From Spizellomyces punctatus DAOM BR117 (Eukaryota): a DNA stretch of 29,083 nt. Below, piece by piece: positions 8,140 through 29,083 of the stretch. The first letter of the stretch is position 1. Every line of letters starts with the position of its first letter. Both the position numbers and the translations under genes were made by a program. The DNA lies in NCBI GenBank assembly GCA_000182565.2, contig KQ257456.1. One strand, 5' to 3'. The notes below the pieces were generated by a model. The model was given only the letters and a program-made list of their open reading frames with translations. It did not search any database and was not told the DNA's origin.

Positions 8140-10433
8140 CTAGATTTCCTCCGTGTAATTGCTGGGGGAAAAAGTTTTGGTGAGCGTGCCTGAATATGAA
8201 CGGGGTGCAATTGTGAGGTGCGTAAACTCAGGCAGCTTACCCTGGTATAAAGCCTTCCAAGTTGCCGTCTGGTCGATGTACACGCGCCTTCCACCATCTA
8301 CAGGCACACAGTGTCAAACGTTGCAATGGTGATAAGCAAAAGGTTCTTTTGTACAAACCCATCGTCCTGCTTCTCCAATACATCCACCTCTTCCCCTGCC
8401 TTGACACATAGTTCATTATTGTCCGCATTTCCCTCAAAATCATACATTAGCTTCACTCGACAAATCACAGAGGTATTGCCGTCATGATTGCTGTCATGAT
8501 CGTGTGAAGATGCCAATTGGTGGGAGCTGCCATGATGCGACCTCTCTTCAACTTCTGTCGCACGAGGGCTTTCAACAATAGATGATTGTGGAATCAATCC
8601 ACCGGACGATCCTTCGCTCTTTGTAGTATGCACGCTCAATGGTCTTGCGGCACTCACAGGCGTGCCACTTCCGACGCTCGATGAATCAGAAAAGGGCGTC
8701 AAAGGACTTGATTGACCTTGTCCATAAGCCTTTCCTCCAATTTGAACCGCCGGTGGGTCGGGGGGTGCTACTCCGTCCAATGTGGAGATGTACACTTGCA
8801 ATTTATGCTTCTTGTGCAAAATGAGGGCTATTCGCTGATCCAATGCCTGATGCTGGTCATCCAAATCGCGCTGCACTTTCGGGTCTTTGGCAATCTCAGG
8901 TTTCGAAGCGTATACAGCCATGAGCGTGTCCACACCTGTTCGTTTCTTTTCCACCTCTGCAAGCTCCTTGTCGAGGACTTTGATTCTCTCTAAAGCTTTC
9001 TTTCTACCCTGCTTCCCAGGCAGGACCACAATGGCATCCTCCTTGTTATCATCTATCTCATCCCGCGTTTTCGTGAAACCTCTCGTCGACGTCTTCTTGT
9101 TGAGATTCGAAGTTGCCAAAGCTCGCTCTTCAAATGTGAAATCAGCTGGATAAGGTGAATGTGTTTGTGTCATTTTGATAAATGTTGCGGAGTCATAGGA
9201 GGGGGTGATTTTTTCAAACATGTCGACCATATTCTCGAGAGCGGTGGTGAGACTCGGCATTTGGGAAGCGAGGAGACCTGAATACTTTAGAAAGGCATTT
9301 TTCGAAAAATCTATACGGTTTTGCTCGTCTTTCGATTGGATGATCTGTGAGCGTTAGAAGGTGACGTGATGTAAGTTTGCTTTGCGAGTCGATGTCCAAC
9401 CTAAGGAGGCGGGCTTACATTAAGGACACTTGGAATGGTCTCTGTATAATACTTTTCTTTGGCGATATTTGTTTGCTCTAAAAGCACATATGGAGCCGCC
9501 GTTAGAAACCGCCAACAAAAAGCTTCAGACAAAAGGAACCCACCAATGCACTGCTTATATCCTGTCGCTGCCTCCTGCGCAAGCATTGCCTTCTTTTCCG
9601 CTTCGGTTCGCAACTATTGGAAAGATTTAACATCATAAACTTTAAGAAGTAGCACGATCCAAACCGCCACACCTTTTCAATATCCTTCGCCGTCTTATTC
9701 ATATCCTGATTTGCACTCTCATAGGCCTGTCTCGCGGCATCCATGTCCTTTGTCGCCTTGTCATACTTTTGTCGAGTCTTTTCGAGGTTGTCAACTACTT
9801 TGCGATAGTCCAGCGTATATTTACGAAGGTCGTCGAAATGCTATGCATAACGGATGCAGATGAGACCTACGAATAATAGGAAACTGACGGAGCATACACA
9901 CCTGTTTAAACACTTTGTCGTTCTCTTTAATTTGGTTTTTGATGCTTTTTCTCAAATCAGTGTCCATGTTTTCTGCCATACTGGTGTGGAATGTTGCTGT
10001 ATGTTCGGTCATTGTGAGGAGTTGAAGCCAACTTTGGGCCACCGTACTACACATTCAATCGTCAAATCTGCGATTCCCGACTCCCAAACCAAAAATTCAA
10101 AGAACAAGAAAAAGCCAGGGGACACATACCCACTTAGAACGGCCACCCCCAACCCTTTGTTACCACTGCCCTGCCCCTCCTTTTTATTCAACTCCTCCTT
10201 GTGCGCTTTGACCAGTTTTTGCAACGACCGCGCATAATCGGCCTCGATTTCGGCTCGGCGTTTAAGGAATTCATTGAAGCGTTCCAGGGATTGCGTTCCG
10301 ATTTTCGTATAGGCTTCGACATTCTCCAGCTGATCCTATATTGAAATTGCGGTATTTGTAGCTGATAACTTGGATTTTCTCACGAGGTGATACGTACCCA
10401 CAGCGTTAGACCAAAGTTTGGTTGGTCATCCAT
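8140..10433 (-). CDS. F-BAR-HR1-SH3 protein of the CIP4/Toca-1/FBP17 (Bzz1-related) family, ~582 aa, 9 exons
   Basis: Exons 10433-10398, 10335-10130, 10046-9902, 9840-9673, 9613-9544, 9477-9419, 9344-8359, 8297-8241 and 8161-8140. FCH/F-BAR start FGLTLWDQ...FLKRRAEIEADYARSLQKL. HR1-like RKKALERIKVLDKEL...VYASKP..DP. C-terminal SH3 VKLMYDF..NEL....GWW...GFIPGNY. Confidence 0.9.
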
Positions 10434-14175: not shown

Positions 14176-15529
14176 TCATTTATTCGCAATTCGGACCCCG
14201 TTCACATCACATGGCGATTCCTCCCTATTTGGATCATCGGGTTTCTTCCTCAAACCGCTCAGACCTGCTTGCAGATTAGGATCCTTCGACTCCATAATTG
14301 TCGTCAGCAAGGCCTTTTCAATAATTTCCAATTCCCTCACCCTCGTTTCTAACCATTCTCTACGTCCCCTAAATTTACGCTCCACTTGCACCTCCACTTC
14401 AAGCTCTCTTACTCTATTTTCCAAGTACTCGTTCCTATCGATCAGCGCGCTCAAATCTCCGGCGGACACCATCGTTCCTTTTGCCACGCTAACTGGTGGT
14501 GGAACGGGGAGGCTTGATAAACTCGACGTGGGAGTTCCGGTGGGAGAAGCGGTCAAGGACGAATCTGCCGACCTTTCTGCTCCTATGCGAGAGACATTAA
14601 TAGCCGGTTCTCCGGGCTTATGATACATATGAAAGTGATGCGTTGACGCTGTCGGGCTCCGGACCGCGGATGTTGCCGCTGGTGATGTGACTGGCATAGA
14701 CGGAGGTGGATACATTCCAAAAGGTAGAGCTGCGGTAAGAAATGGAGGAGGGTATGGATAGTGAGTCTGCGTGGGAGGTGTTCCGGGTGCATCAGTCAAT
14801 GTCCCTGCAAATGGCTGCCCAAAAAACGCCATATTAGAATTCAAGCGCATTGAGCTATCGTGCACAGAATCATTAATACAAAATGAAGCTACGTACCGAG
14901 CCGACACTGGCCGCTGAAGAATCATCCTTAGCCTTGACCTGCGTTCCCATGCTCGTCAATCGCGAGATCCGGCCAAAGCTGTTCAGCCCACAACAAGGGG
15001 CTGATGATCCTTCTACCCGCATGTGGCGGTTCAATGCATCGAGGCGAGAGAAATCGCGATGACAATGGGGGCATTTGTATGGTTTTACTCCATCATGAAG
15101 ACGCTGATGTCTCTTTAGATCGTGCTGGCGAGAGAAGGCCTGACTGCAAACATCGCAGGTGAAAGGACGCTCGCGACTGTGAACGAATGAGTGCGACTTC
15201 AGATTATGTTGTCGTGAGAAGGTTTGATCGCATTTGTCGCAGGCGTAGGGTTTGTCGGGAGTGGCGTGAGGAAGGAGAGGAAGATGCGGACCGTCCATAG
15301 AGTCCAAGGTCACAACGTTGTTGCTCAGCGATGTGGTATTCCCGCCCTCATCTGGGTGTCCTCTGTCGTTGGTTTGCCTCTCAGCTGACAATTCTTGCTG
15401 GGCTGCATGAGCCGCATGCGCTGCGTGAGCTGCCGCCGCTGCCGCCTGCATTGCATGCATCGCAGCGACCGCGGCTGGACCTTGAGTCGACTTCGAGTTG
15501 TCTGGGAGTGTGATGATATCTGTGCTCAT
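14176..15529 (-). CDS. C2H2 zinc-finger transcription factor with three Crz1-like fingers and a C-terminal coiled coil (~423 aa)
   Basis: Fingers CDKCDQTFSRQHNLKSH, CDVCSQAFSRQHDLKRH and CPHCHRDFSRLDALNRH. Phase-0 intron 14896-14815 (GTACGT..CTAAT..CAG) joins ORF 14873..15529 to ORF 14176..14925. An extra 5' exon is possible. Confidence 0.88.
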
Positions 15530-16505
15530 ACCTTAAATTGGAAAAGACGAACCATAGTGTTAGAGACATGGCCGAGTCTTTGAGAGCAGGTAGATCGGCG
15601 GTGCAGAGATGCTGGAGAAAGTCTGACGTGCATATCTTATTCACGCCTCCGCCGCGAACGCCTCAACTCGCCCACACCAGCCCGTGGCGGGGGTCGGCAC
15701 CCACCTGGTAAGATCGGAGGATGGAGGCTCAACGTCCAGCAAGACCAAAATTCTCCTACGTGACACTCCACTGTGATTCCGATTCTGGCTGAATCGCCGC
15801 TTCTGGTGAGTATGCAAAGGTCGAATGCAGACAGTGCGGCCGACGTTGACAGTTTGCCAGGAGGCCGAACAAACGCGTGCAGTAGCTTGCCTAACGCGAC
15901 TTCGAAAGTGGCGGATCGCCACAGTGGCCACCAATGATCGAGGACTTGCGCCACGATGAGCATTAGGTAATACACTCCGATCTCCTTTTCTGCTTCAACG
16001 ATCTAGCTACATCTTGAGATAGAGCATATTAGTCGAAATAATTATGAGCATCTCTTAATTTAGGTCTGAATCACCAATGTCATGTGAAAAGACTCAGAGC
16101 TGCTGATGATACAAGCATAGACTTTGCGGAATATTCATACAGCAATGTAGACGTTTCCGAAACAGCGGCCAATCTGCCGAGTTTAGTTTTTGAACACCAA
16201 GCAACGACGGAATATTTACCAGCGATGTAAATATGGGAAGGTAAAGCATGTAGGCGGATAGCACCCAAAGGACCTGCAGCATCCCATCATCATCTTGGCC
16301 AAGCATATGGCCACCTCTCCAACAATAACCCTTAAACTGCTGATACTTGGGGAGGGTACTAACGCTGTGCTCAACACAGCTAATGTATTACTAAAAGAAG
16401 CACATCCCAAGCGACCCAAAAATAGAGCGGTCCAGGGATATCCTTCCCACAAATGGGGCCACAAATAACTCATAGAAATTCAATACCGAAGTTCTTCTAG
16501 CTTGT

Positions 16506-20638: not shown

Positions 20639-22035
20639 TTATAAACGCGAAAGTGTATGCTGTAATGTGCTCTAAGAGGGCAGAGAGTAGGAAATTGTAA
20701 TAAATTGGTAAAGCAACGAGGTCCAATTCCCAAAACGAGATGGGGTCGGAGATGGGCAACTCGTTAAAAACCTGCGATGACATGCCATTTCCCCATTCAA
20801 ATGACCACATTCCCGTGATCCATCCGTTCACCCACGTGGACAAGTCATTTGAAGCCAAAAGCAGGAAAACGTGTCGCTTGAAGCATTTTTTGTTTACCTT
20901 TCAGACCCTCATGCGTTCATCAACTTTCAATGCATCGTTTAACAGGATATCGTCCTGTATGAATGTATTCGCAATGGAATCCCCGTGCAGGGAAACTGTA
21001 AGGCGTACGAAGAATGTGGATGAGAATCCGATTGAGTTGCCCTTTCCCTTTTTCGTACTTGGCGGCGGATGAATGGCAAAATTCCCAGATTTGGGGTGTT
21101 GACTTGTCTATTCACCCACTCAATCTGCAGTCGCCCTCTTTGCCAATCATAGCATATGGCATATGGCACCAGAACGGAACGGTGTATTCTGACCTCATTG
21201 GACAAAATCAAGAATTACTAGCGTGTGAGCATCTGCTTTCAGATACTCCTTCCATTGGACATTCATTTGACTAAAACAAAAGCGTCGGATCAGAGAAGCC
21301 TACAGGCATTTTCAGCACGGTCAGATCTAAGACGACCGTCGTGATATAAAGTCTCATCAGTTCCGCGCAAAAAGCTCCAGTTTCAGTCGGTGAGAATCCT
21401 ACTATTCCTCGTGTGGAACGAAACACACAAGACAGCTCGAGCCATTCCAGACTAAGAATAGTATGACCTCATAGACAAAAACAGGTTTATAGATACCCAG
21501 TCAGACGGAGCCCACCATCCTTCCTACCGGGTTGGAATATCCCAGAGGAGCAATCTTCAACGGGAGGGAGGCGACCAAAAGGCACGCCTCAAACGCTCCC
21601 CACTTCTCGTTGGATAGAGGCTCTCCGTCTCATCATCCTGGGTGATATGTGCGACTTTGTTAGAAAACAAAGCGAGGTACGACAGACTCCACATATGATC
21701 CTGAAGAGTTGGTCGATAAAGAAAACAAGAGGAGGACGAGGAACGACGGGTTTTTATAGCCCTGGAGCCGCATCACGCGAGTGGCGCAATGACAAAAAAA
21801 AGCATGAGCCAATCACCGGTGCAGCCACTGTTAACATGGAAACAGGACTGCGCAAATTCGCTTGTTCAAATCCACACGTGATCCCCTTTCAAAAATGTTC
21901 AGATATCGAACAAAAAAAACCAATGTTATCTATAAAAAAAATACAGTATGACGTCCTATAACAAGAACCCAATGTACCTGCATCAAAGATTCATCCTATA
22001 AGCCAACCATTCTATGCACCGCTCATTGAAAAAAA

Positions 22036-23667
<1,632 letters not shown>

Positions 23668-26078
23668 TATGAAGCAGCAGTTACTTGAAGTGGATATGGG
23701 TCCGTGGAAAGGGGAAAAAGGCAAGTGTTGCCTGCTTTATAATGCACACACTGGAGCGTGTGACTCTGTCATGGACAGCGAGCGTTGTACGAAACGCGCA
23801 GACCCATGTTTCCATATTTAGGTTGATGATAAGTCCAGTAGCTGAGCGCAGTCACCCCACTTCTTATCATGTGACCTCCTGTGAGAAAGTGGTCCTCTAC
23901 TGGCTTTCGATTAGCAGGCAGGTTACGCTTCAGTAAGCCAGGAAAAATCCTTTTTTCTATTTCAAGGTGTAGGCAGAAATTCTATAAACGTAGCGCAAGC
24001 TGGGGACGTGCCCACTTGACTGGTGGATACAGCACGGCAAGGCAACCCTTTTCTGGAGAGAACAGCACCGTCATTTCCACATTTGTCTATGACACATTGC
24101 ATTTATGCTTTATCAGCTTTTATTTATTTTGCGTTCAGGACTCCTGAACGACATTCCAAATATTCCATTGTCCACAGCCCAGCCAATATCTCTAGGAAAG
24201 CATAATCATTGCTCCAGGAAGCATGACTGGACAAGCTATGTTGAGAACAATTTTGGTCGAGACCTCTCTATATATATATTTGCTGCTTTGGCCAGTGATT
24301 GATAGGTCTGGAGGTCGCCGTTTGTCCATCGATCTCTCATGTCCGCTGCAATCGTCCGGATGTTGCCAGTCAACAGGGAGTGCGACACGTGACAGTGTCA
24401 GCTTGTCCAGCAAATCAGACAAGGCATGTGGCTTTAGTCGTGTCATGTGATCTCATTTTAGGCATTGATTTCGACCCTATTGCACTCGCCGTCGGTGCAG
24501 CACATCACTCTGCTCGTAATCGCACTGCATCCAAATGTTGATCTCCCGTATTGATCTACGCATGCTACCTCCTTCTTGCCTAAGTCGCACCGGGGCTTAA
24601 CTTCACAAGCACTGATGAGCAATCGGCATTAACAGTTGTCACTGCAGCATCAGATGAGGATAAAGTTAGTATGAAGAGTCGCTCGGAAAGTAAACGACGG
24701 TAAAGACTTCACACTGAGTAAGAGCGAAGAAGACGAGAGCGAGGACAAGGAAGAAGAACTTCATCGTGTATATGTAACAAATTTATGCGTGGAATTTAGC
24801 ACCGTTTAGGTCGTCGTTCCGTGCGTAATGGAGTGCTGGAGAATCCTAAAAGATGTCTTCCCCTTTACACTTCTACTTCAACCTCAAGTCTTTGATGTGG
24901 GCCATGCAGTTGACTGGTAAAGGGTTTGTTCTTGATTTTGGTTCAGGGCACTGGAAATCCGCGGCAAGGATCGCGGCTCACGGTCATGTGAGTGCACTCC
25001 ACTTGGATGAGCTGTTTGAACAGTTGTTGCTGAGATATCTCAAGGGTCGACCTATTCACCAGACACTCATTGGTTTATTGCAACTATCCCTCACCCTCCA
25101 TAACTTTAATCTTAATGCCATGGATCATAGCGTCTCTACCTATCATTTCACTAACCCTCATCTTCCTATCTTACATTCCTGTTTACCTTGCCACTTTGAC
25201 AAATACGTTGCATCCTGGTTTGAGATATGAAGAAGACAAGCCAGCCCAGCCCAACAAACAATGTCAAATCATCTTTGATGGCTCGAACAGGTCGACAAAT
25301 GTGTGCAGTTGATGTGCCATCCAGATGTGTCTCGTCCTCACCCATTCCACACTCTGAACGAGACACTTGAAAGGACGCACAACCGCGTCACAAAAATACG
25401 AAAAGTGGGACATGTTGAAGCACATCAAAGTACGATTTGACACTATCAGCGGAGAACAAGGGCGTGTTCTTCTTACATAACACCCGCCTTCCCGCCTTGG
25501 GATTTCAACGCGGGGGCGGACATCTTGGCCGAAAAAAGAAACGAAGAGGGACTGCAAACGCCAGCGCGCCGTCTTATAGATTTTGGCTCCTCTTTTGATT
25601 GGAAACGCCTCTTTCCTTTTACCCAGAAAAGGAAGGAAAAAGCATTTTTTTTTTGCCAGAGGCTGTCTTTGACCTCCCAGGCCCTCTCTTGCCATGTCAC
25701 AAAAAGGGCCAACTGTCCTCATCATGTGCATTTGTCGTTGTGTTTGTTAGCAAATCACATGACATAATACATGCTGACTGTGCCACCTCCGCGTTTCGAT
25801 GTCTCCGTCCTGACAGTTTTTTGCTTTTTCTTTCCTTTTCCGTCTTTCTTTCCACACACGTCGCAGCATTTTGGGATACAAATGCATCCGAACTTTGGAC
25901 CACAACCCGCCGCCTCCCGATCCCGCCGCCTGCTCCAAGGTTTTTTCCCACGCTCGCTCAAGTAAAGGGCTTGAACGCATCTCATCACGCATCTTACCAT
26001 CTTTTGGCAAACATCGAGCGACTACAAGTAGAAAACGGTAGAAGGAACACATTCTTGATTGATAGAGAGACAGCGAGG

Positions 26079-28164
26079 ATGGGAGAATCGTCGAATGCGC
26101 CGTCAAAACGCTTGGCGGTTCTCTATGCGTACAATGGATCGCTTTTCCAAGGCCTTGAGAGGTAGGCAGTTATATCGTATGAGAAGGAGCGCATGTGAAA
26201 TTGGATCACTGATGAGTATCTGGTCCTTTTCTAGGTCAAAGGGATTGAAAACCATCGAAGGTGTTTTGTTGAGCGCCATCGCAACAATTGTGGGTGAAGC
26301 GGACCCGACAAAGAGAGTTTCGGTAGGCTTTTCAATGCCGTTCGTTCAACACTGGAAAGTAACTGACGTTTTGGGAATCATTTTAGCTCGTCAACATTAG
26401 TCGTGCGTCTACAACAGAAGCTGGCGAACATGCTGCTCGCCAAGTTCTCTCGCTTGAAGTGGCGGCAAGCGAGAATGCGCCAATGCCAACCGCTGAATCT
26501 TTGACGCCTTTATTGCCGGACGGTATCAAGGTGTTCGATATTATCCAGCTGAACACGTCCTTCTCGGCGAGGAGGACCTGTGACACAAGGACATATGAAT
26601 ATCTTATCCCGGTACGTTTTGGAATGCTACTCATGAGTCACGGTTAATGCAGGCTGCTTATCGTATTTTTGGGGGTAGACGTATGTATTTGCACCTCCCC
26701 CGCCCGAAACGCATTACTCGTATCCTCCCCTGTCGGATACAGAATTTGAAGAGCTATGGCCCGTAAATGAAAATCTAGGTCCTCCTGGCGGTCTTTTCAA
26801 GACTATCAAGCGAGGCATGTCTCTCAAACGGAACAAGAGCCAGGCACGCTCCATGAGTCGCGCAAAAAGTGTGAACCGAAAGGCGAGCCGTAGGGATGCG
26901 TCTGGCCCGCCAGAAGACACTGTGGCGCCTCCTAAGCTCGAGCGCTCCATGTCCAGTCCTTCCCTCCCCTCTCCCCCACCATCTCCGTCGTCGCACCCAG
27001 TAGAGAAGAAGAGTGGTCTTCGCAAGTTTTTCGAAACGCTTACCCGCGGCCGCTCAAAGACAAGGAACGTGGAAGAAGAAGTGCCCGTCACAATTGCGCG
27101 TAGCAAGAGCAGAAAGGGGCAGGCTGGGGGAGTTCCATTGACAGCTTCAGGGTCAGCTCAGTCGTTTTCTAACGAGGTGTCCTACTCAACGTCTTCACCG
27201 GAGAAGGAAGATGATTTTGGCTTTATTGCCACACTCCGTCGGTCGGTATCCCGTAAATCTACTCGCAGAAGAGACCCCGAAATCGCCTCTTTGCGGGGAT
27301 CTGGGGAGGATGCTCTGGAGGAGGAGAAACCAGAGACTGCCGAACCGCAATACTTTGATCCTCTCCACTTCCCTCCGCCCAGCGAGGAGGAACTTAGCCT
27401 GACTCGCCAGTACCGAATCACCGAAGACCAAGTGAAAGCCATGAATCACATTTTGGCCATGTTCAATGGAACACACAACTGGCACAACTATATTCCTGGC
27501 GCCAAGTATGAAGATTCACGGTGCTACATGCGCATCATCAACATTGAATGCAGCGCCCCAGAGGTGCACTTTGGCATGGAATGGCTTCGAATTAAGGTCC
27601 AAGCCAAGGCTTTTGCGCGGTACCAGGTCCGCAAGATGATGGCAATGGCTATCATGGTCATTAGAACCAACACGCCACGAAGCATTGTTGCCAACTCATT
27701 TGGATATGCCAAGATTGAGATACCGGAGGCTCCTGCGATGGGATTGATTTTGGATGAGCCGCACTACGACACTTTCAACTCTGATTGCGAGAGGAGATCT
27801 GATCCAAATGGCATCCACTTTGCCAAACACCTGGTAATGTCCAACTGCTCAGAATCACTATTTACTACCATCTGAAAGCTAATTTTTTTTGTTTCAACAG
27901 CCCGCGGTAACGGAGTTCCGTCATCATTCAATTCACGACCCTGTGTACCGAGCCGAACTTGAGTCCATGAAATTCAACGAATGGGCACGAAACCTCGATG
28001 CTTATTCCTTCCTGTACACGTACTACCTCAATGAACGCGGGGTGATCAAACCAAACACCAACTATGTTACCAAGGCGGCCATTGAGCAGGAACGTGCCGC
28101 TGCTGAGGCAGCGAAGCAGGGTGTTGCTGATGGATTGTTTGTCAAAGAAGAGGCGAAAGCGTGA
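26079..28164 (+). CDS. Pus1/TruA-family pseudouridine synthase-like protein, predicted catalytically inactive, with large basic low-complexity insertion (~604 aa)
   Basis: Exons 26079-26161, 26235-26322, 26387-26611, 26679-27833 and 27901-28164. TruA-like motifs YNGSLFQG, TIEG, FSARRTCDTRTYEYLIP, GTHNWHNY, YQVRKMM and APAMGLIL. Motif II reads RASTTEAGEHAARQV instead of RAARTDKGVHA. Confidence 0.88.
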
Positions 28165-28406
28165 GCTCAGCAATTCTACATGATTTATTGACAGTTGTGT
28201 TAAGTCGTAGGTAATGGGTAGTATTGGAATAGTGTCGTTATAGGAGTTGTAGTAGTAGCGTTGTAAAGACAGGATGGAAGCCAATTTGGCATATTTTTGG
28301 GGAGCAAGGGCGGTGGCATTCAAAATTACTATTTGTATGATTTGTTTCGGTTCCTATCATTTTCTGTGTCTTAATACATTTTCATGTTTCTTTTGGGAAC
28401 TGGCTC

Positions 28407-28496
28407 TACAATTGGGGTTAGTAGTGCGGAGCCGGTGGGTATTGGCACTAGCACCCGCACCAGGGATTGAACCGCGCGACAACCGGTTCGGAAACC
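28407..28496 (-). ncRNA. Fanzor omegaRNA, SpuFz1-type 75-nt scaffold (28496-28422) plus flank-derived guide (from 28421 downward, CTAACCCCAATTGTA...)
   Basis: Minus strand reads GGTTTCCGAACCGGTTGTCGCGCGGTTCAATCCCTGGTGCGGGTGCTAGTGCCAATACCCACCGGCTCCGCACTA, nearly identical to the SpuFz1 omegaRNA scaffold as I recall it. It lies ~20 nt downstream of the Fanzor stop and ends at the element boundary. Stems GAACCG/CGGTTC and GTGCGG/CCGCAC. Confidence 0.9.
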
Positions 28497-29083
28497 TTAA
28501 TCTAACTAGTCTACGCTACGCTACCACTGGAACACCCCTCCTGAACACCTCTGGTCTACCGTGTCCATCCAACATTGATTGCATGATTGCCAGCATGTTG
28601 CAGGTTGACAGTGTATCTCGATTCCAGTAGCGCATTGTCCAGGCTTGCTGCAAACAGTTAGGGTTGGTACAACCCAGCAATCCATGGACTTTTTCAACCT
28701 TGCCTTCTTGTCATCACCAAGGTCTTGAATGAGGTCATGTTTTGAAGTCCTTTTCAAGGAAGTGTAACGACGAGGACGTCTTCGAGAGATCGCGAGTAAG
28801 CCCAAATCGGACGCGGGAAGCACGAATCGCGTGACCAACTCCACCGATTGGGTTACCGCGACCGAAAAAACCGGTTCGGAGAATGGCAATTGGCGCATTA
28901 GATTTCAGCGTGCCTCGTACAACCTGTGGAGGCCCGAGCCAGTGCGGAAAAGGAAGAGATCGGTACCGCCACCAATAAATCAGTTGCGGTGCAGCGACAC
29001 CCATTAGTTTAGTTTAGTTTAACAGTTTATCCAAGAATCTTGTATAAAAAGGATGTATTCAATAAAATAAGTCGGGGCAGAAG
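28424..29083 (-). mobile_element. Spu-1-type Fanzor element: omegaRNA end with TIR and TA; internally deleted/decayed; the other end is not visible in the window
   Basis: TA at 28422-28423, then terminal sequence GTGCGGAGCCGGTGGGTATTGGCACTAG (28424-28451), the omegaRNA scaffold and a Fanzor C-terminal relic. No matching TIR is seen before 29083, so the extent beyond ~28880 is uncertain. Confidence 0.82.
28516..28782 (-). pseudogene. Fanzor1 (TnpB-like RuvC nuclease) C-terminal pseudogene fragment
   Basis: A single frame reads KTSSSLHFLEKDFKT*PHSRPW**QEGKVEKVHGLLGCTNPNCLQQAWTMRYWNRDTLSTCNMLAIMQSMLDGHGRPEVFRRGVPVVA*. It includes the second Zn-binding pair CxxxxC and the RuvC-III WNRD motif of TnpB/Fanzor, and closely matches the SpuFz1 C-terminus as recalled. 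Internal stops at 28735-37, 28714-16 and 28711-13. Confidence 0.92.

Follow-up and report, generated by a model that had tools for sequence, protein, structure and literature searches.

Pseudouridine synthases are usually described with an invariant catalytic aspartate, and the exceptions, RPUSD3 and mt-LAF4, are few, mitochondrial and outside the Pus1 branch. In the excerpts of the literature on which we draw, mutation of this Asp abolishes activity in TruA, TruB, RluA and RsuA (PMC3919597), and the catalytic residue is Asp in all pseudouridine synthases of Escherichia coli, yeast and human except RPUSD3 (PMC13473875). In yeast Pus1, the D134A mutant has no activity, about 87% of it is lost in R132A, and R362A is also badly impaired; according to the legend of S4 Fig, D134A still stably binds an RNA oligonucleotide (PMC10631681). 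Arg116 of PUS3, two residues upstream of the Asp, is described as 'as catalytically important as Asp118' (PMC11258540), and TruB requires a basic residue in motif III (PMC3973310). Here, we analyzed a gene located at positions 26079..28164 on the plus strand of a 29,083-nucleotide stretch of contig KQ257456.1 (GenBank assembly GCA_000182565.2) from the chytrid Spizellomyces punctatus DAOM BR117; this whole stretch is hereafter called the window. The gene encodes a Pus1-like protein in which Glu stands in place of the catalytic Asp and Thr in place of the Arg, and it belongs to a conserved chytrid family that has probably been repurposed after duplication of Pus1.

The catalytic loop of the window protein reads SRASTTEAGEHAARQV, where its Pus1 counterpart is RAARTDKGVHA. 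Glu68 stands on the column of the catalytic Asp and Thr66 on that of the Arg of the RTD motif (TruA R58, yeast R132, PUS3 R116). In addition, Glu71 is found where GVHA has Val, and motif I ends in GLE, with Glu27 at the place of the canonical Gln. Motif III is also altered, with Arg450, the equivalent of yeast Pus1 R362 and TruA R205, kept; the active-site Tyr of the R.YEY motif is present as well. The changes of the Asp, of the Arg and of motifs I and III had been read from the DNA in a first-pass annotation, and we found each of them where it stated (Table 1). The protein is identical, without gaps, at 579 of 604 residues to P0006, 'hypothetical protein [Spizellomyces sp. palustris]'. When P0006 was aligned by phmmer to the chains of the Protein Data Bank (PDB), the query segment 'rastteageha' came opposite 'raartdkgvha' of 7r9f, with Glu68 aligned to yeast D134, and the Ala of the D134A mutant entry 7r9g fell in the same column.

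The gene is transcribed and correctly spliced. Its five exons join into 1815 nucleotides coding for 604 residues with a single terminal stop, and all introns are of the GT..AG type. Contigs from four public runs (X1-X4) were aligned to positions 26000-28250. A contig of X1, 2133 nucleotides long with a depth of 165, skips precisely the four predicted introns and has no other differing letter; it corresponds to the fully spliced form. Unspliced contigs of X2 (26000-26594) and X3 (26000-26424) show no difference across motif II, and the joints of introns 3 and 4 are also seen in X4, from a separate study. X1 possibly derives from the sample behind the window assembly, which makes it not fully independent, and contigs are silent on expression level. 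Because the spliced contig of X1 and the unspliced ones of X2 and X3 are identical to the window, the altered loop is not an assembly error. The open reading frame (ORF) is intact over five exons, as first annotated, and the transcripts carry the Glu loop rather than a restored RTD.

The window gene is predicted to encode a protein of the Pus1-type fold, made of two alpha/beta half-domains. Family PF01416 (PseudoU_synth_1) of Pfam scores 33.7 bits on P0006 and 32.8 bits on exon 4 of the window, above the cutoff of 23.3. Against all PDB chains, phmmer aligns P0006 with yeast Pus1 (7r9f, E 2.1e-45), human PUS1 (4iqm, 4.5e-39) and TruA (1vs3, 6.2e-12). An AlphaFold2 model of P0006, built from an alignment of 67 rows, has a mean predicted local distance difference test (pLDDT) score of 78.8 and a predicted template-modelling score (pTM) of 0.73. 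Both half-domains (residues 10-160 and 350-590) are modelled with pLDDT above 90. The top PDB matches of this model in Foldseek are 7r9g, 7r9f, 4nz6 and 4iqm (E 7e-29 to 8e-19, target-normalised TM-score, TMt, 0.76-0.87). Yeast PUS1 has the best E value (7e-29) and human PUS1 a TMt of 0.82-0.87; TruA and PUS3 follow. The TruA-like chains 6sga_FB and FC of a Trypanosoma brucei assemblosome are among the matches. An Atlas search and full-length Pfam gave no match outside Pus1/PF01416.

To see how general the substitutions are, 35 family rows were compared column by column with 32 canonical rows. The Arg of position 66, present in all 32 canonical rows, is absent from all 35 family rows, 26 of which have Thr. 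At position 68, Asp in every canonical row, the family has Glu in 29/35 rows, Asp in three and V, M or S in the rest. Glu also takes the place of Gln at position 27 (31/35, the other four being gaps; canonical Gln 31/32) and of Val at position 71 (32/35; canonical Val 32/32). Several Lys are lost or reversed: position 58 (Lys in 31/32 canonical rows) is hydrophobic in the family, position 69 (28/32) is variable, and positions 81 (31/32) and 482 (30/32) carry Glu in 30/35 and 26/35 rows. In addition, Gly75 (29/32) becomes Arg (32/35) or Lys (3/35), the Lys and Asn of positions 119-120 become an Arg-Arg pair (35/35), Ser436 becomes Arg (34/35), and motif III changes from GQSFMLH to AKAFAR(Y/F). 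Other residues are the same in both sets, namely Thr67, Gly70 and His72-Ala73. Tyr127, found in 32/32 canonical rows, is retained in 30 family rows and replaced by F in three and W in two; Arg450 (32/32) is retained in 32/35. The GTHN(F/W)HN motif and the C-terminal helices are also kept. Overall, the signature of positions 27/66/68/71/127/450 is ETEEYR in 24/35 family rows and QRDVYR in 31/32 canonical rows.

A larger census of the Asp column covered 353 proteins, 27 of which lacked the region or scored too low. Asp was found in 274 (271 canonical, three family) and Glu in 45, all family; the family also accounts for two Ser and for one V, one M, one H and one Y. One canonical-type protein, P0246, has I in this column; its local alignment is doubtful and it was set aside. 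Within the family (n=54), the column thus contains 45 Glu, three Asp and six other residues. The Asp bearers are P0058 (Synchytrium endobioticum), P0066 and P0078, while the related sequences P0067, P0074 and P0077 carry M, H and Y with the adjacent GEHA retained. Arg450 is missing in P0058 and P0066, both with Asp68, and in P0063, with Val68; position 450 is V in P0058, L in P0063 and Q in P0066, and two of the three are back to Val at position 71. Such covariation hints that, judging from these sequences, Glu68, Glu71 and Arg450 may vary together. The full catalytic set is found in no aligned family member. The loss of the Asp is borne out in orthologues, and the TTE loop holds for most rows, with Thr66 and Glu68 dominant and Arg66 nowhere restored, but not for those with D, V, M or S.

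A separate canonical Pus1 is recorded for S. punctatus. P0313, 'tRNA pseudouridine synthase A [Spizellomyces punctatus DAOM BR117]' (524 residues), has all five checked motifs intact: GMQ, RTDKGVHA, FHAKNACDARIYEY, GTHNFHNF and FMLHQIRKM. The search led from a canonical Pus1 of Mucoromycota (P0079) to that of Geranomyces variabilis (P0282), and from there to P0313 and other chytrid canonical proteins. Of the canonical proteins from chytrids and early fungi, 27 were checked, and 27/27 have RTD(K/R)GVHA and F(M)(L/I/M)HQIR(K/R)M. Both forms occur in at least ten more chytrid species, and within any one species the Asp-less protein and canonical Pus1 are 29-35% identical over 273 shared domain columns. 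The protein comparisons thus identify the Asp-less gene as a true extra paralogue of Pus1, and the first annotation was right in calling it so. Two Asp-less members each were observed in Thoreauomyces (P0012/P0015), Phlyctochytrium planicorne (P0025/P0032), Rhizophlyctis rosea (P0017/P0018), Physocladia (P0052/P0059) and Entophlyctis luteolus (P0054/P0055). These pairs would stem from additional duplication or else represent alleles or assembly duplicates. The motif-II region is absent from P0032, possibly through a gap in its gene model.

With exon 4 as the query, 58 proteins were retrieved at E ≤ 1e-3 among 5800 candidates, and all those with an organism name are from chytrids. They include Spizellomycetales, Rhizophlyctis, Cladochytrium, Batrachochytrium, Chytriomyces, Polychytrium and Synchytrium; orthologues with the same motif are distributed over at least seven chytrid orders. 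When 1.84 billion representatives were searched exhaustively with a profile, 8860 matches had E ≤ 1e-3. Among the best 150 of these 8860, about the first 36 (at least about 300 bits) belong to the family, and canonical RTD proteins follow. A maximum-likelihood tree was built by a quick search from 46 chosen rows (25 family, 20 fungal canonical, one animal) and 395 columns. The 25 family rows form one clade, with a support of 100 in the Shimodaira-Hasegawa-like approximate likelihood-ratio test (SH-aLRT) and a stem of 1.21 changes per column. Branching inside the family roughly tracks the chytrid orders, with Synchytrium basal. Six of the family members P0064-P0078 were placed through this tree alone. 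Judging from these sequences, the Asp-less form is one clade with strong support, and it was observed in Chytridiomycetes only.

In the free tree, the sister clade of the family consists of fungal canonical proteins (support 88). The approximately unbiased (AU) test does not reject a grouping of the family with chytrid Pus1 (p = 0.32), and therefore the duplication may be chytrid-specific, or older with losses elsewhere. Long-branch effects on the placement of the family are likely. A very divergent sub-group (P0069, P0070, P0075, P0076 and P0078) was also observed, with GE(F/Y) for GEH, GTHDWHNY and inserts of up to about 500 residues; it nests beside Chytridiales on a long stem of 0.94.

The family is constrained almost as tightly as the enzyme. 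Over the 273 domain columns in ten species (45 pairs), the family has a mean pairwise identity of 0.635, as compared to 0.647 in canonical Pus1, and it is better conserved than canonical Pus1 in 16/45 species pairs. The tip branches of the tree agree with a similar conservation of both. Hence, at the protein level, purifying selection on the paralogue is, by these measures, about as strong as on the active enzyme. Few stretches of the family protein are as conserved as the loop SRASTTExGEHAxRQV. A fast stem followed by evolution as slow as that of the active enzyme is the pattern of a new function, not of decay. We also scanned metagenomes for orthologue DNA: eight loci were confirmed out of 62 pattern matches, all of them distant. 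The best, L001 (39% identity), carries an ITE loop.

The two half-domains of the family protein are joined by a long linker, with a median of 209 residues (range 110-341) as compared to 44.5 in canonical Pus1; in the window protein, the whole linker spans residues 136-371. It contains a family-specific insert of about 200 residues, which AlphaFold2 predicts to be disordered. A short motif, ΦΦxTΦ(K/R)R(G/S)xS, is repeated in this insert. Using the pattern [FLIMV][FLIMVA]x[ST][FLIMV]x[RK]x(1-3)S, 54 occurrences were counted in 29/35 family members and none in 32 aligned canonical or 234 RTD-bearing Pus1 proteins. In 200 shuffles, the mean count was 1.67 and the maximum 6, a contrast that is somewhat flattering because the pattern was devised after the alignment was seen. 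The Arg-x-x-Ser core presumably resembles the sites of basophilic kinases, and it looks like a candidate kinase or docking site. At the chain's other end, a median of only 17 residues precedes motif I in the family, versus 99.5 in canonical Pus1; this near-absence of an N-terminal extension argues against a mitochondrial presequence. Finally, the net charge of the folded domain has a median of -1 in the family (range -6 to +6) as compared to +6 in canonical Pus1 (0 to +14).

Taken together, we infer, with a probability of about 0.6, that the gene encodes a repurposed, probably non-catalytic Pus1-derived paralogue, maintained by purifying selection and probably used for binding. In the scenario that we propose, fungal Pus1 was duplicated and the copy underwent remodelling at an early stage of Chytridiomycetes. 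The copy keeps the fold of Pus1 together with its active-site Tyr and motif-III Arg. Gone are the Asp, the RTD Arg, the Lys that follows the Asp and several conserved surface Lys. Most likely, the copy no longer isomerises uridine. The old cleft would have been rebuilt as a highly conserved surface comprising S62, T67, E68, E71, R75, S117, R119, R120, R436 and RTNTPRS, which is probably used for binding and not for catalysis. The one to three basic Arg-x-x-Ser copies of the insert may act as linear binding sites or as sites of phospho-regulation.

All non-catalytic variants included, loss of pseudouridine synthesis is quite probable and the most likely state of the protein, because the Asp and the Arg are both gone and M, H, Y, V and S are tolerated in the Asp column. 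The term pseudo-enzyme used in the first-pass annotation names the most likely reading: the additional loss of the Arg and the non-acidic residues speak for it, the very strong conservation of the loop against it. Substitutions of TruA D60, including D60E, were reportedly found inactive by Huang et al. in 1998; D60E was not found in the open-access literature searched. The only D-to-E substitution in that literature is a rare human PUS1 variant, D146E, predicted to be damaging.

Several observations weigh against this reading. Glu still supplies a carboxylate, and the two other core active-site residues, Tyr127 and Arg450, persist in most family members. Dead active sites do not usually show such conservation of the loop, which an altered catalytic centre could explain as well. 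Most of the non-acidic variants stem from database proteins that are unnamed and in part truncated. In addition, the drop in net charge of the domain, by about seven, makes it doubtful that the RNA-binding mode of Pus1 is retained. Because of this charge loss and of the Lys-to-Glu reversals at conserved Pus1 positions, we argue that RNA binding, if any, would not be in the Pus1 manner, and the RNA-binding or scaffold role suggested in the first-pass annotation is thereby partly questioned.

A Glu-based or otherwise altered active site, all variants taken together, is the foremost alternative, though we regard it as a minority case. A working active site made of the rebuilt cleft itself, with Glu27, Glu68, Glu71, His72, Tyr127, Arg450, Ser62, Ser117, Arg119 and Arg120, appears unlikely. 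If it existed, it would make the protein the first pseudouridine synthase in nature to depend on Glu, or else bring a new RNA-directed chemistry to the Pus1 fold; the Arg-x-x-Ser motifs of the insert, which could be phosphorylated, may then control it.

Two forms of catalysis may be distinguished. The protein could still be an active pseudouridine synthase, using Glu68 in place of the Asp in a cleft adapted to a new RNA substrate. A carboxylate at this position in 48/54 family members (45 E, 3 D), the preserved Tyr127 and Arg450, and an extremely conserved loop under a constraint equal to that of the active enzyme are what one would expect of it. We nevertheless hold it to be rather improbable, given that Arg66 is absent from 35/35 rows, in a position where the Arg of PUS3 is reported to matter as much as the Asp (PMC11258540), and that the Asp column is occupied by S, V, M, H or Y in 6/54 members. 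Furthermore, in the excerpt of the survey of E. coli, yeast and human enzymes, no natural pseudouridine synthase lacks the Asp save the presumed dead RPUSD3 (PMC13473875).

Alternatively, the changes Gln27 to Glu, Asp68 to Glu and Val71 to Glu, beside His72, could have created a new, possibly metal-dependent site with a chemistry other than isomerisation. Three independent changes to Glu are fixed (E27 31/35, E68 29/35, E71 32/35), His72 is kept, S62, S117, R119 and R120 are new and invariant, and the loop is conserved beyond the apparent need of a mere scaffold. However, that the three Glu cluster in space is an assumption from sequence, some members are without E68, and no other enzyme family was matched by Foldseek, Pfam or Atlas. 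We consider such a neo-functional enzyme a slim prospect.

The protein could also be catalytically inactive and serve canonical Pus1, or a different RNA-modifying enzyme, as partner or regulator, much as inactive paralogues team up with active ones in other systems; the association of RPUSD3 with RPUSD4 and TRUB2 has been proposed as a precedent (bioRxiv 10.1101/2023.02.23.529727). Its more acidic domain could face a basic partner, and it co-occurs with canonical Pus1 in 10/10 species compared. This co-occurrence is expected anyway because Pus1 is near-universal, and Pus1 is described as a monomer. We regard such a partnership as improbable. Finally, an artefact of assembly or annotation, or a decaying gene, is extremely improbable in view of the intact ORF, the spliced contig of depth 165 with no difference, and orthologues across the chytrid orders with the same motif and a conservation equal to that of the active paralogue.

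A repurposed binding protein would be a clean case of an RNA-modifying enzyme turned to another use after duplication, and the family offers a natural test of whether Glu supports the reaction. Transformation methods for S. punctatus are published (PMC7213984). The database name 'tRNA pseudouridine synthase 1' given to family members is probably wrong as a statement of function. Within the open-access literature searched, no dead pseudouridine synthase of the Pus1 branch or from chytrids is in print.

Elsewhere in the window, four further features were identified (Table 1). The plus-strand stop-to-stop ORF at 21467-21961 is probably not a gene because it overlaps the match to U3 small nucleolar RNA (snoRNA). 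Nine other long ORFs of the window have no Pfam match. A tRNA-like look of the region around 28420-28500 does not hold up: ARAGORN finds no tRNA gene in the window.

Table 1 Positions of the Asp-less gene, its coding features and other elements in the window (residue numbers refer to the 604-residue protein).
Feature	Position	Strand	Description
Exon 1	26079..26161	+	Met1 to first two bases of codon 28; contains motif I YAYNGSLFQGLE; splice joint in X1
Glu27	26157-26159	+	canonical Gln
Exon 2	26235..26322	+	residues 28-57; joints 26161/26235 and 26322/26387 present in X1 contig
Exon 3	26387..26611	+	residues 58-132; altered catalytic loop and conserved Tyr motif FSARRTCDTRTYEY
Motif II	26402..26446	+	RASTTEAGEHAARQV; Thr66, Glu68 and Glu71 substitutions; 0 differing letters in X1, X2, X3
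Thr66	26411-26413	+	ACA; Arg of RTD
Glu68	26417-26419	+	GAA; catalytic Asp column
Tyr127	26594-26596	+	conserved Tyr motif
Exon 4	26679..27833	+	residues 133-517; disordered insert and the greater part of the pseudouridine-synthase fold's C-terminal half; PF01416 match
Short motif copy 1	26793..26822	+	LFKTIKRGMS
Disordered insert core	26811..27275	+	residues 177-331; Ser/Arg/Lys/Pro-rich; pLDDT below 50
Short motif copy 2	27027..27056	+	FFETLTRGRS
Short motif copy 3	27222..27251	+	FIATLRRSVS
Motif III	27603..27638	+	AKAFARYQVRKM versus canonical GQSFMLHQIRKM
Arg450	27630-27632	+	kept
Exon 5	27901..28164	+	residues 518-604 and TGA stop (28162-28164); C-terminal helical extension W..R..D..YSFLYTYYLNxRGVI, common to fungal Pus1
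HR1-domain ORF	8298-9353	-	TOCA-family HR1 domain (Pfam E 5e-8)
Zinc-finger ORF	14873-15532	-	C2H2 zinc fingers (Pfam E 4e-17)
U3 snoRNA match	21496-21716	-	full-length (Rfam RF00012, 65.2 bits versus gathering 34, E 2.6e-12)
Glyoxalase-type ORF	22036-22788	-	glyoxalase/dioxygenase-superfamily domain (Pfam E 3e-11)

The closest described system is Pus1 itself (yeast 7R9F/7R9G, human 4IQM/4NZ6), with which the chytrid protein shares the fold, R.YEY, GTHN(F/W)HN, the Arg-Lys-Met of motif III, the position of the linker and the fungal-type C-terminal helices. It differs by RTDKGV changed to TTExGE, GMQ to GLE and GQSFMLH to AKAFAR(Y/F), by the loss or reversal of Lys58, Lys81 and Lys482, by a linker of about 209 instead of about 45 residues, by the lack of an N-terminal extension and by a net charge of -1 versus +6. 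Judged by sequence, it bears the marks of a pseudoenzyme, that is, a replaced Asp, an active paralogue alongside and purifying selection at the protein level.

Among such proteins, RPUSD3 is similar in that it is a paralogue with the pseudouridine-synthase fold, without the catalytic Asp and the base-flipping Arg, beside active paralogues (PMC12710931; PMC13473875). However, as described in these sources, RPUSD3 is a mitochondrial member of the RluA family in which the Asp is changed to Gly, the motif-III Arg is lost (Q248) and the catalytic column is reportedly relaxed, whereas the chytrid family has Glu in 45/54 members and keeps the motif-III Arg. The kinetoplastid mt-LAF4 is likewise an inactive homologue, described as repurposed into a structural placeholder (PMC7703582), and mt-LAF3 is reported to function without its Asp (D211A) (bioRxiv 10.1101/2023.02.23.529727). 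Both are assembly factors of the mitochondrial ribosome in a distant lineage, whereas the chytrid protein, known from sequence, is without a presequence-like N-terminal extension. Human PUS1 is itself described as an rRNA scaffold in the assembly of the mitoribosomal small subunit, with its pocket facing away (PMC13294482); there, an active enzyme moonlights, in contrast to a dedicated Asp-less paralogue. Overall, the chytrid family is set apart from the known dead pseudouridine synthases by its place in the Pus1 branch, its class-wide occurrence in fungi, its conserved and conservative change of Asp to Glu, and the motifs of its own insert.

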